Part shown: in pieces, positions 30,001 to 30,126 of the stretch
How the letters are laid out: the number at the start of each line of letters is the position of its first letter
Position numbering within the stretch: position 1 is the stretch's first letter
NCBI RefSeq assembly: GCF_041886205.1
Contig: NZ_CP169029.1
DNA: 64,000 nucleotides
Reading direction: 5' to 3' (one strand)
From: Escherichia coli
GTDB taxonomy: Bacteria; Pseudomonadota; Gammaproteobacteria; Enterobacterales; Enterobacteriaceae
The notes under the pieces: generated by a model
Database searches by the model: none
What the model was told of the DNA's origin: nothing
The model's input: the letters and a program-made list of their open reading frames with translations, nothing else
Made by a program: the position numbers and the translations under genes

Positions 30001-30045
30001 GATCAATGTGGGGGGCCGCCTACGGCGGCCATACACAATGGACTT

Positions 30046-30126
30046 TGTAGGCCTGATAAGCGAAGCGCCATCAGGCATTGCGGCCCCAAACACCGAATGG
30101 CGGCTGCGCCTTGTCCGGCCTACAGG
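30046..30126. repeat. REP-like extragenic palindromes at the island/xseA junction
   Basis: tgtaggcctgataagcgaagcgccatcaggc and tggcggctgcgccttgtccggcctacagg resemble the E. coli REP consensus (GCCTGATG...CATCAGGC type). Confidence 0.55.

Follow-up and report, generated by a model that had tools for sequence, protein, structure and literature searches.

The 119-bp gap (30001-30119) between the convergent ratA-like (+) and xseA (-) genes of an Escherichia coli chromosome holds a GC-rich hairpin followed by two REP palindromes, and judged by its sequence the unit formed by REP1, a linker and REP2 fits an atypical BIME (z1, short linker, y). The explanation in which we have good overall confidence is that the BIME and the single-copy hairpin serve as mRNA 3'-end structures, with possible damping of xseA, within a local mosaic, and that the element did not move the adjoining adhesin island. 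The window, which is the whole stretch of 64,000 nucleotides that was analysed, contains in order der, yfgJ (+), sinH, sinI, the ratA-like adhesin gene (+), xseA (-), guaB and guaA. Its sequence from 29801 to 30400 agrees throughout with that of strain LHM10-1 (100% identity); in LHM10-1, RefSeq labels the ratA-like product an "adhesion domain-containing protein" and places SinH and a SinI family protein before it. The ratA-like gene is the last gene of a sinH-sinI-ratA block between xseA and yfgJ that is the known ila/CS54-like island (PMC12928451). Genes, gene order and chromosomal site are shared with the ila/CS54-like islands of ExPEC and Salmonella. Unlike the common ila-type alleles, to which its identity is 70-77%, the 3' end of ratA in the window is a rare allele, and unlike other ila/CS54-like loci the window has an intergenic patch that is present in only 9 E. 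coli genomes. The coordinates of the features are collected in Table 1.

Table 1. Positions of the genes, repeats and allele-specific segments around the ratA-xseA gap, numbered from the first nucleotide of the window
Feature	Position	Strand	Description
yfgJ	stop 18410-18412	+	
ratA-like giant adhesin gene	21949-30000	+	2683 aa, from the ORF list; stop TAA at 29998-30000
Allele-specific patch	30004-30200	strand-neutral	~200 nt; hairpin, BIME and last ~27 xseA codons
GC hairpin	30007-30037	strand-neutral	perfect 7-bp stem GGCCGCC/GGCGGCC with loop TAC at 30014-30030
REP1, z1-type (short Z)	30047-30077	+	GTAGGCCTGATAAGCGAAGCGCCATCAGGCA; GTAG at 30047-30050
Head-to-head linker	30078-30090	strand-neutral	TTGCGGCCCCAAA, 13 nt, between REP1 and REP2
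REP2, degenerate y-type	30091-30123	-	reads GTAGGCCGGACAAGGCGCAGCCGCCATTCGGTG on the minus strand (30123-30091)
xseA, exodeoxyribonuclease VII large subunit	30120-31496	-	458 aa; stop is the complement of 30120-30122
Island-linked divergent xseA 3' end	30120-30280	-	last ~53 codons; right boundary of the presence/absence haplotype

The REP types were assigned with reference Y and Z2 sequences taken from K-12 REP325, whose units are defined as Y-linker-Z2 (PMC4550694), and a short Z taken from the K-12 yghA-exbD BIME sequence. REP1 matches that short Z at 29 of 31 positions and the Z2 of REP325 at 31 of 37 positions with gaps, its type being 6 nt shorter than Z2. It has a 7-bp stem (GCCTGAT/ATCAGGC), an AA/C mismatch and a 3-bp upper stem (GCG/CGC). 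The best type for REP2 is the Y of REP325, with 27 of 36 positions matching; it carries the motif GTAGGCCGGACAAG with 1 mismatch, has its GTAG at 30123-30120 on the minus strand, and retains the layout of a 5-bp and a 4-bp stem with two stem-weakening substitutions. Taken as a whole, the REP1-linker-REP2 unit is colinear with the yghA-exbD BIME of K-12 (82% identity over 89 nt, E 3e-10), where the equivalent linker is 12 nt, and of the 4962 E. coli genomes with a match, most have the yghA-exbD BIME as their only one. The preliminary description had claimed two REP-like palindromes after the hairpin and proposed that they be aligned to REP families; the alignments bear the claim out and type the palindromes as z1 and y.

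Both REPs have the GTAG foot (CTAC on the other strand), an imperfect palindrome of 30-40 nt, a stem mismatch and similarity to a REP type. They lie between genes apart from 4 nt shared with xseA, and the REP head motif GTAGGCCKGATAAG (≤2 mismatches) is enriched in the window, where it occurs 4 times against 0.45 expected, a count that 0 of 100 shuffles attained. A second BIME lies at ~47667-47760 and consists of two inverse, tail-to-tail y-type REPs, one of them degenerate (GTAGTTCGGATAAG). The predicted folding of REP1 is -11.8 kcal/mol on the plus strand and -14.9 on the minus strand (z -2.5 and -4.5). REP2 alone reaches -9.9 kcal/mol (z -0.87) and folds no better than shuffles (z -0.15 and -0.87), and the two REPs paired form an 83-nt hairpin of -38.8 kcal/mol (+) or -40.7 (-), with z of about -3.2 to -3.5. 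There is also a weak direct repeat on either side of REP1, GGCGGCCATACACAATGG and TGCGGCCCCAAACACCGAATGG (30024-30041, 30079-30100), and the BIME linker shows 85% complementarity to the sequence that flanks the hairpin on the left (30007-30019); these resemblances may be chance or may be a trace of the arrival of the z1 REP.

To which class of BIME does this unit belong? [quoted passage not shown] No WATCARNNNNTTR match to an IHF site was found in the linker or the rest of the gap, where the best sites have 2-3 mismatches. With a linker of 13 nt and no IHF site the unit is ruled out as a BIME-1, and with a REP1 that is a short Z (z1) rather than a z2, in one unit and not in tandem copies, it is ruled out as a BIME-2. 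What it shares with the E. coli BIMEs built from y and z1 REPs is the GTAG/CTAC foot, the imperfect 30-35-nt palindromes with a stem mismatch, the head-to-head orientation and the short linker. Unlike typical BIMEs, it joins z1 to a short linker, consists of one unit with a degenerate y REP, and reaches 4 nt into a coding sequence; the multi-copy habit that is usual for atypical BIMEs is not seen here, where the unit occurs singly.

A BIME of this layout could also be viewed as a gene for a nucleoid-associated small RNA of the naRNA4/REP325 type, since naRNA4 itself is a Y-linker-Z2 BIME unit (PMC4550694). An Rfam scan with a permissive E-value returned a full-length alignment with naRNA4 (RF02564) at 30050-30120 (-), E 0.081, in which the two-hairpin REP-linker-REP layout of this REP325 BIME-2 unit is shared over model positions 1-77; two other matches in the same scan were judged to be chance. 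However, the naRNA4 alignment scores 25.7 bits, far below the gathering score of 59.5 bits for RF02564, the unit is single and not a tandem array, its Z-type REP is z1 and not Z2, and the match reflects only common REP ancestry. A small RNA gene is thus extremely improbable, and the REP1-linker-REP2 unit is an ordinary, hitherto unannotated member of a familiar repeat family, situated in a rare allele of an island that is already known.

The GC hairpin claimed in the preliminary description, GGCCGCC-TAC-GGCGGCC, is present as described. It sits 13 nt past the ratA stop codon, and beyond a 3x3 internal loop its stem continues to TGTG/CACA (30007-30037), with an RNA folding energy of -19.4 kcal/mol on the plus strand (z -3.35) and -17.6 on the minus strand. 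It is the sole all-GC 7-bp hairpin in the window, and one such hairpin somewhere in 64 kb is unsurprising on its own: 0.76 are expected by chance, and 47 of 100 shuffles have at least one. It is found in 9 of 5426 complete E. coli genomes, one copy each, and no second copy exists in any of the 5426. The hairpin was considered as a third, degenerate REP, as GGCCGCCTAC recalls a REP tail, and this was rejected: global alignments with Y, Z2 and short-Z REPs score ≤0 on both strands, there is no REP-type alignment, and there is no other E. coli copy. A metagenome scan for a donor returned only the same E. coli locus, and the hairpin is absent from all 80 Enterobacteriaceae xseA loci examined.

In their classical role, REP stem-loops block 3'-to-5' exonucleases and fix the 3' ends of mRNAs. 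By analogy, transcription of the two convergent genes would place the hairpin and the REP pair at the 3' ends of the ratA and xseA mRNAs, where they would form stable stem-loops, and the folded 3' ends would shield both mRNAs from 3'-to-5' exonucleases. Of the readings of the gap, mRNA 3'-end protection is the best supported, as we infer from the established roles of REPs. Another conceivable main function of the hairpin and REP pair is to terminate transcription in both directions and so to insulate the convergent ratA and xseA units from each other, given that the stem-loops lie between convergent genes and are stable on both strands, and that the plus strand after REP2 is moderately T-rich (GGTTTGTCGGTTTCTT). 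Yet this T-rich stretch falls within the xseA coding sequence, no T run follows any of the stems, and there is no U-tract after the GC hairpin on either strand. Promoter and terminator scans of 29800-30400 on both strands gave no promoter and 0 terminator-like sites, and island-free genomes have an overlapping xseA and yfgJ without any such structure. A main function in termination is therefore improbable.

The protection reading concerns the gap as RNA; the position of REP2 bears in addition on translation. The xseA stop codon TAG lies within the REP2 GTAG (tail CCTAC), and the overlap of the REP with the 3' end of xseA that the preliminary description reported is confirmed, being confined to the REP2 tail and to 4 nt (30120-30123). 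According to the summary of Liang et al. 2015 in PMC12306157, REPs ≤15 nt from a stop codon stall ribosomes. Here the GUAG of REP2 contains the UAG of xseA, a distance of 0, and because the REP starts at the stop and the rule extends to 15 nt, a reduced translation of XseA is predicted. On the model of Liang, Rudd and Deutscher, a REP that starts at the xseA stop would hinder terminating ribosomes and lower XseA output. Like the stop-proximal REPs of those authors, REP2 is located at a stop codon, and the UAG of xseA lies in the stem of the REP1-REP2 pairing; the xseA case differs from theirs in that REP2 alone is a weak hairpin and in that the effect is predicted from sequence. Because REP2 alone folds no better than shuffles, any effect specific to REP2 may be slight and may require that it pair with REP1.

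The coincidence of the xseA stop with a y REP is not peculiar to the window. It recurs in EcPF14, GF60, GF4-3, E. coli E69, Escherichia sp. E1V33 and one Pseudocitrobacter genome. In strain 2017C a 9-nt deletion has shifted the stop into the TTAT of the REP, and in ST131 the stop is within a Z-like palindrome. On the ratA side, other island alleles have only a partial y REP, and the hairpin and a complete z1 REP are found in the window allele alone. Since the y REP is found at the xseA end in other island-bearing lineages, it is an old feature of the island haplotype. The Pseudocitrobacter genomes (loci L009, L011 and L012) combine a y REP at the xseA stop with a ratA-like gene and an XseA tail of the island type, and residues 1-403 of their XseA are 95-97% identical to E. 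coli, compared with ~89% in other genera. This likeness suggests a transfer of the region between genera.

The immediate surroundings of the REPs are of a more restricted distribution. The patch from 30004 to 30200 is confined to 9 E. coli genomes and 2 contigs from metagenomes, the gap is 100% identical in all 11 known copies, and with 11 of 11 copies identical no covariation is obtainable for any structure in the gap. Compared with GF4-3, the window is 98.7% identical in the 3' end of ratA up to 30003 and diverges from there on. The ratA stop is immediately followed by a sharp recombination breakpoint (30001-30004 versus L088 2650-2660 of GF4-3), and the GF4-3 gap is unrelated to that of the window, a partial y REP and a y iREP taking the place of the hairpin and z1 REP. 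On the other side, 30123-30200 has 53-80% identity to any other island-type allele, and 30201-30290 has 95-96% identity to 2017C and 92-95% to ST131. On these alignments, the REP gap is a local mosaic junction.

What might have produced such a junction? TnpA(REP) requires a GTAG, a stem mismatch and cleavage of the iREP at C|T, and GGCC|TACA is a strong site (PMC3333891). On the plus strand REP1 has the GTAG and the AA/C mismatch, and the iREP ends in GGCC|TACA (30117-30124). The pair has the sequence features of a TnpA(REP)/RAYT substrate, which would offer a plausible route for local turnover. As DNA, the REP/iREP pair would be a candidate TnpA(REP) substrate and would also supply short recombination homology, and one or the other process would be the likeliest reason why the gap and the last xseA codons vary between strains. 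A more specific version of events is that 30004-30200 is the footprint of an in-situ REP replacement, by TnpA(REP) or gene conversion, in which a partial y REP gave way to the z1 REP and a foreign hairpin and the last ~27 xseA codons were rewritten in the same step, the y REP at the xseA stop having been kept across Escherichia and Pseudocitrobacter as a tuner of XseA output. We regard this version as unlikely, but if it were true, REP turnover would directly remodel both the C-terminus and the expression of a core DNA-repair gene.

A local mosaic is a different matter from movement of the island. The preliminary description placed the REPs at the right-hand boundary of the island and supposed that a REP/BIME cluster may have mediated gain or loss of the block. 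In K-12, yfgJ and xseA overlap by 4 nt (TTAA), so that the K-12 yfgJ-xseA intergenic sequence with which the gap was to be compared does not exist. On the left, homology to K-12 breaks at 18413, at the yfgJ stop. On the right, identity to K-12 is ~0.46-0.65 over 30120-30296 and rises to 0.88-1.00 past that segment. Homology to island-free genomes is lost ~160 nt inside xseA (~30280) and not at the REPs. Of that part of the description it holds that the REPs occupy the final gap between genes before the core gene xseA is reached; it does not hold that they are the edge of the presence/absence polymorphism. Judged from the position of this break, the island haplotype includes ~160 nt of xseA.

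The dimorphism of the xseA end is evident both within and outside E. coli. Among the fixed differences between seven island-type alleles and K-12, 26 of 34 are at 30135-30279. The XseA of the window is 98% identical to the K-12 protein over residues 1-403 and 62% identical from residue 404 to the end. A K-12-like empty site is present in 3668 of 5426 genomes (95-100% identity), ratA adjoins an island-type xseA end in ~1512 of the 5426, and ~246 of the 5426 fit neither of these major haplotypes. The distribution of identity is bimodal, with partial matches nearly all at 60-80% (526 genomes) and only 5 genomes at 80-90%. Island-bearing genomes have an XseA tail of the form ...LGDGVV(V/I)SEVS..., whereas island-free genomes and most other Enterobacteriaceae have ...LEDGWIESEVK...; the GC content of the segment encoding the tail is 0.42 in K-12, where it is AT-rich, versus 0.52 in the window. 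Outgroup XseA tails are K-12-like (DGW[VI]ESEV), with a C-terminal identity of 66% to K-12 versus 57% to the window. In other Enterobacteriaceae, yfgJ lies -4 to 23 nt from xseA in 24 of 80 loci, and because of this proximity the island-free empty site looks like the usual state and not like a deletion made by REPs.

An insertion or deletion of the sinH-sinI-ratA island that used the REP/BIME cluster as its recombination substrate would be in keeping with the mosaic junction between alleles in the REP gap and with the finding that REP/BIME DNA is a substrate for strand exchange by TnpA(REP) in vitro (PMC3333891). At the left island edge (18413) there is no REP, even with 3 mismatches allowed, and the island-free junction of K-12, that is the TTAA overlap, has no REP remnant. 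The right homology break inside xseA and the yfgJ-xseA spacing in those 24 loci likewise count against it. With the break located away from the REPs and no matching repeat at the other edge, the REPs do not behave as boundary elements, and REP-mediated gain or loss of the block is unsupported. Insertion or deletion of the island by REPs is very unlikely and can be considered largely refuted.

Some other differences were observed around the island. Its left edge is a REP-free spacer of 24% GC (18413-18603), in which a perfect 17-bp AT-rich inverted repeat with a 5-nt loop (18429-18445 / 18451-18467) lies just after the yfgJ stop. The sinH gene (18604-20796) is a RefSeq pseudogene with an internal stop in LHM10-1 and an open 730-aa frame with a TTG start in the window. 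In LHM10-1 an integrase, IS5075, a Tn3 remnant and ISEc52 are inserted after guaA and yfgI is disrupted (L001 25278-31924); in the window the counterpart of this insertion region is 34771-34862, and a yfgI-sized ORF is intact at 34863-35402, so that the window belongs to another of the nine genomes than LHM10-1.

Outside annotation the feature is of little consequence: what it contributes is one REP pair, so far unannotated, in a rare allele of an adhesin island that is itself known. For the island, the analysis corrects the position of the end, which is inside xseA, and it means that island-bearing and island-free E. coli have XseA proteins that differ in the C-terminal ~55 residues. More speculatively, if the REP at the xseA stop lowers XseA output, carriage of the island would be linked to altered levels of exonuclease VII.
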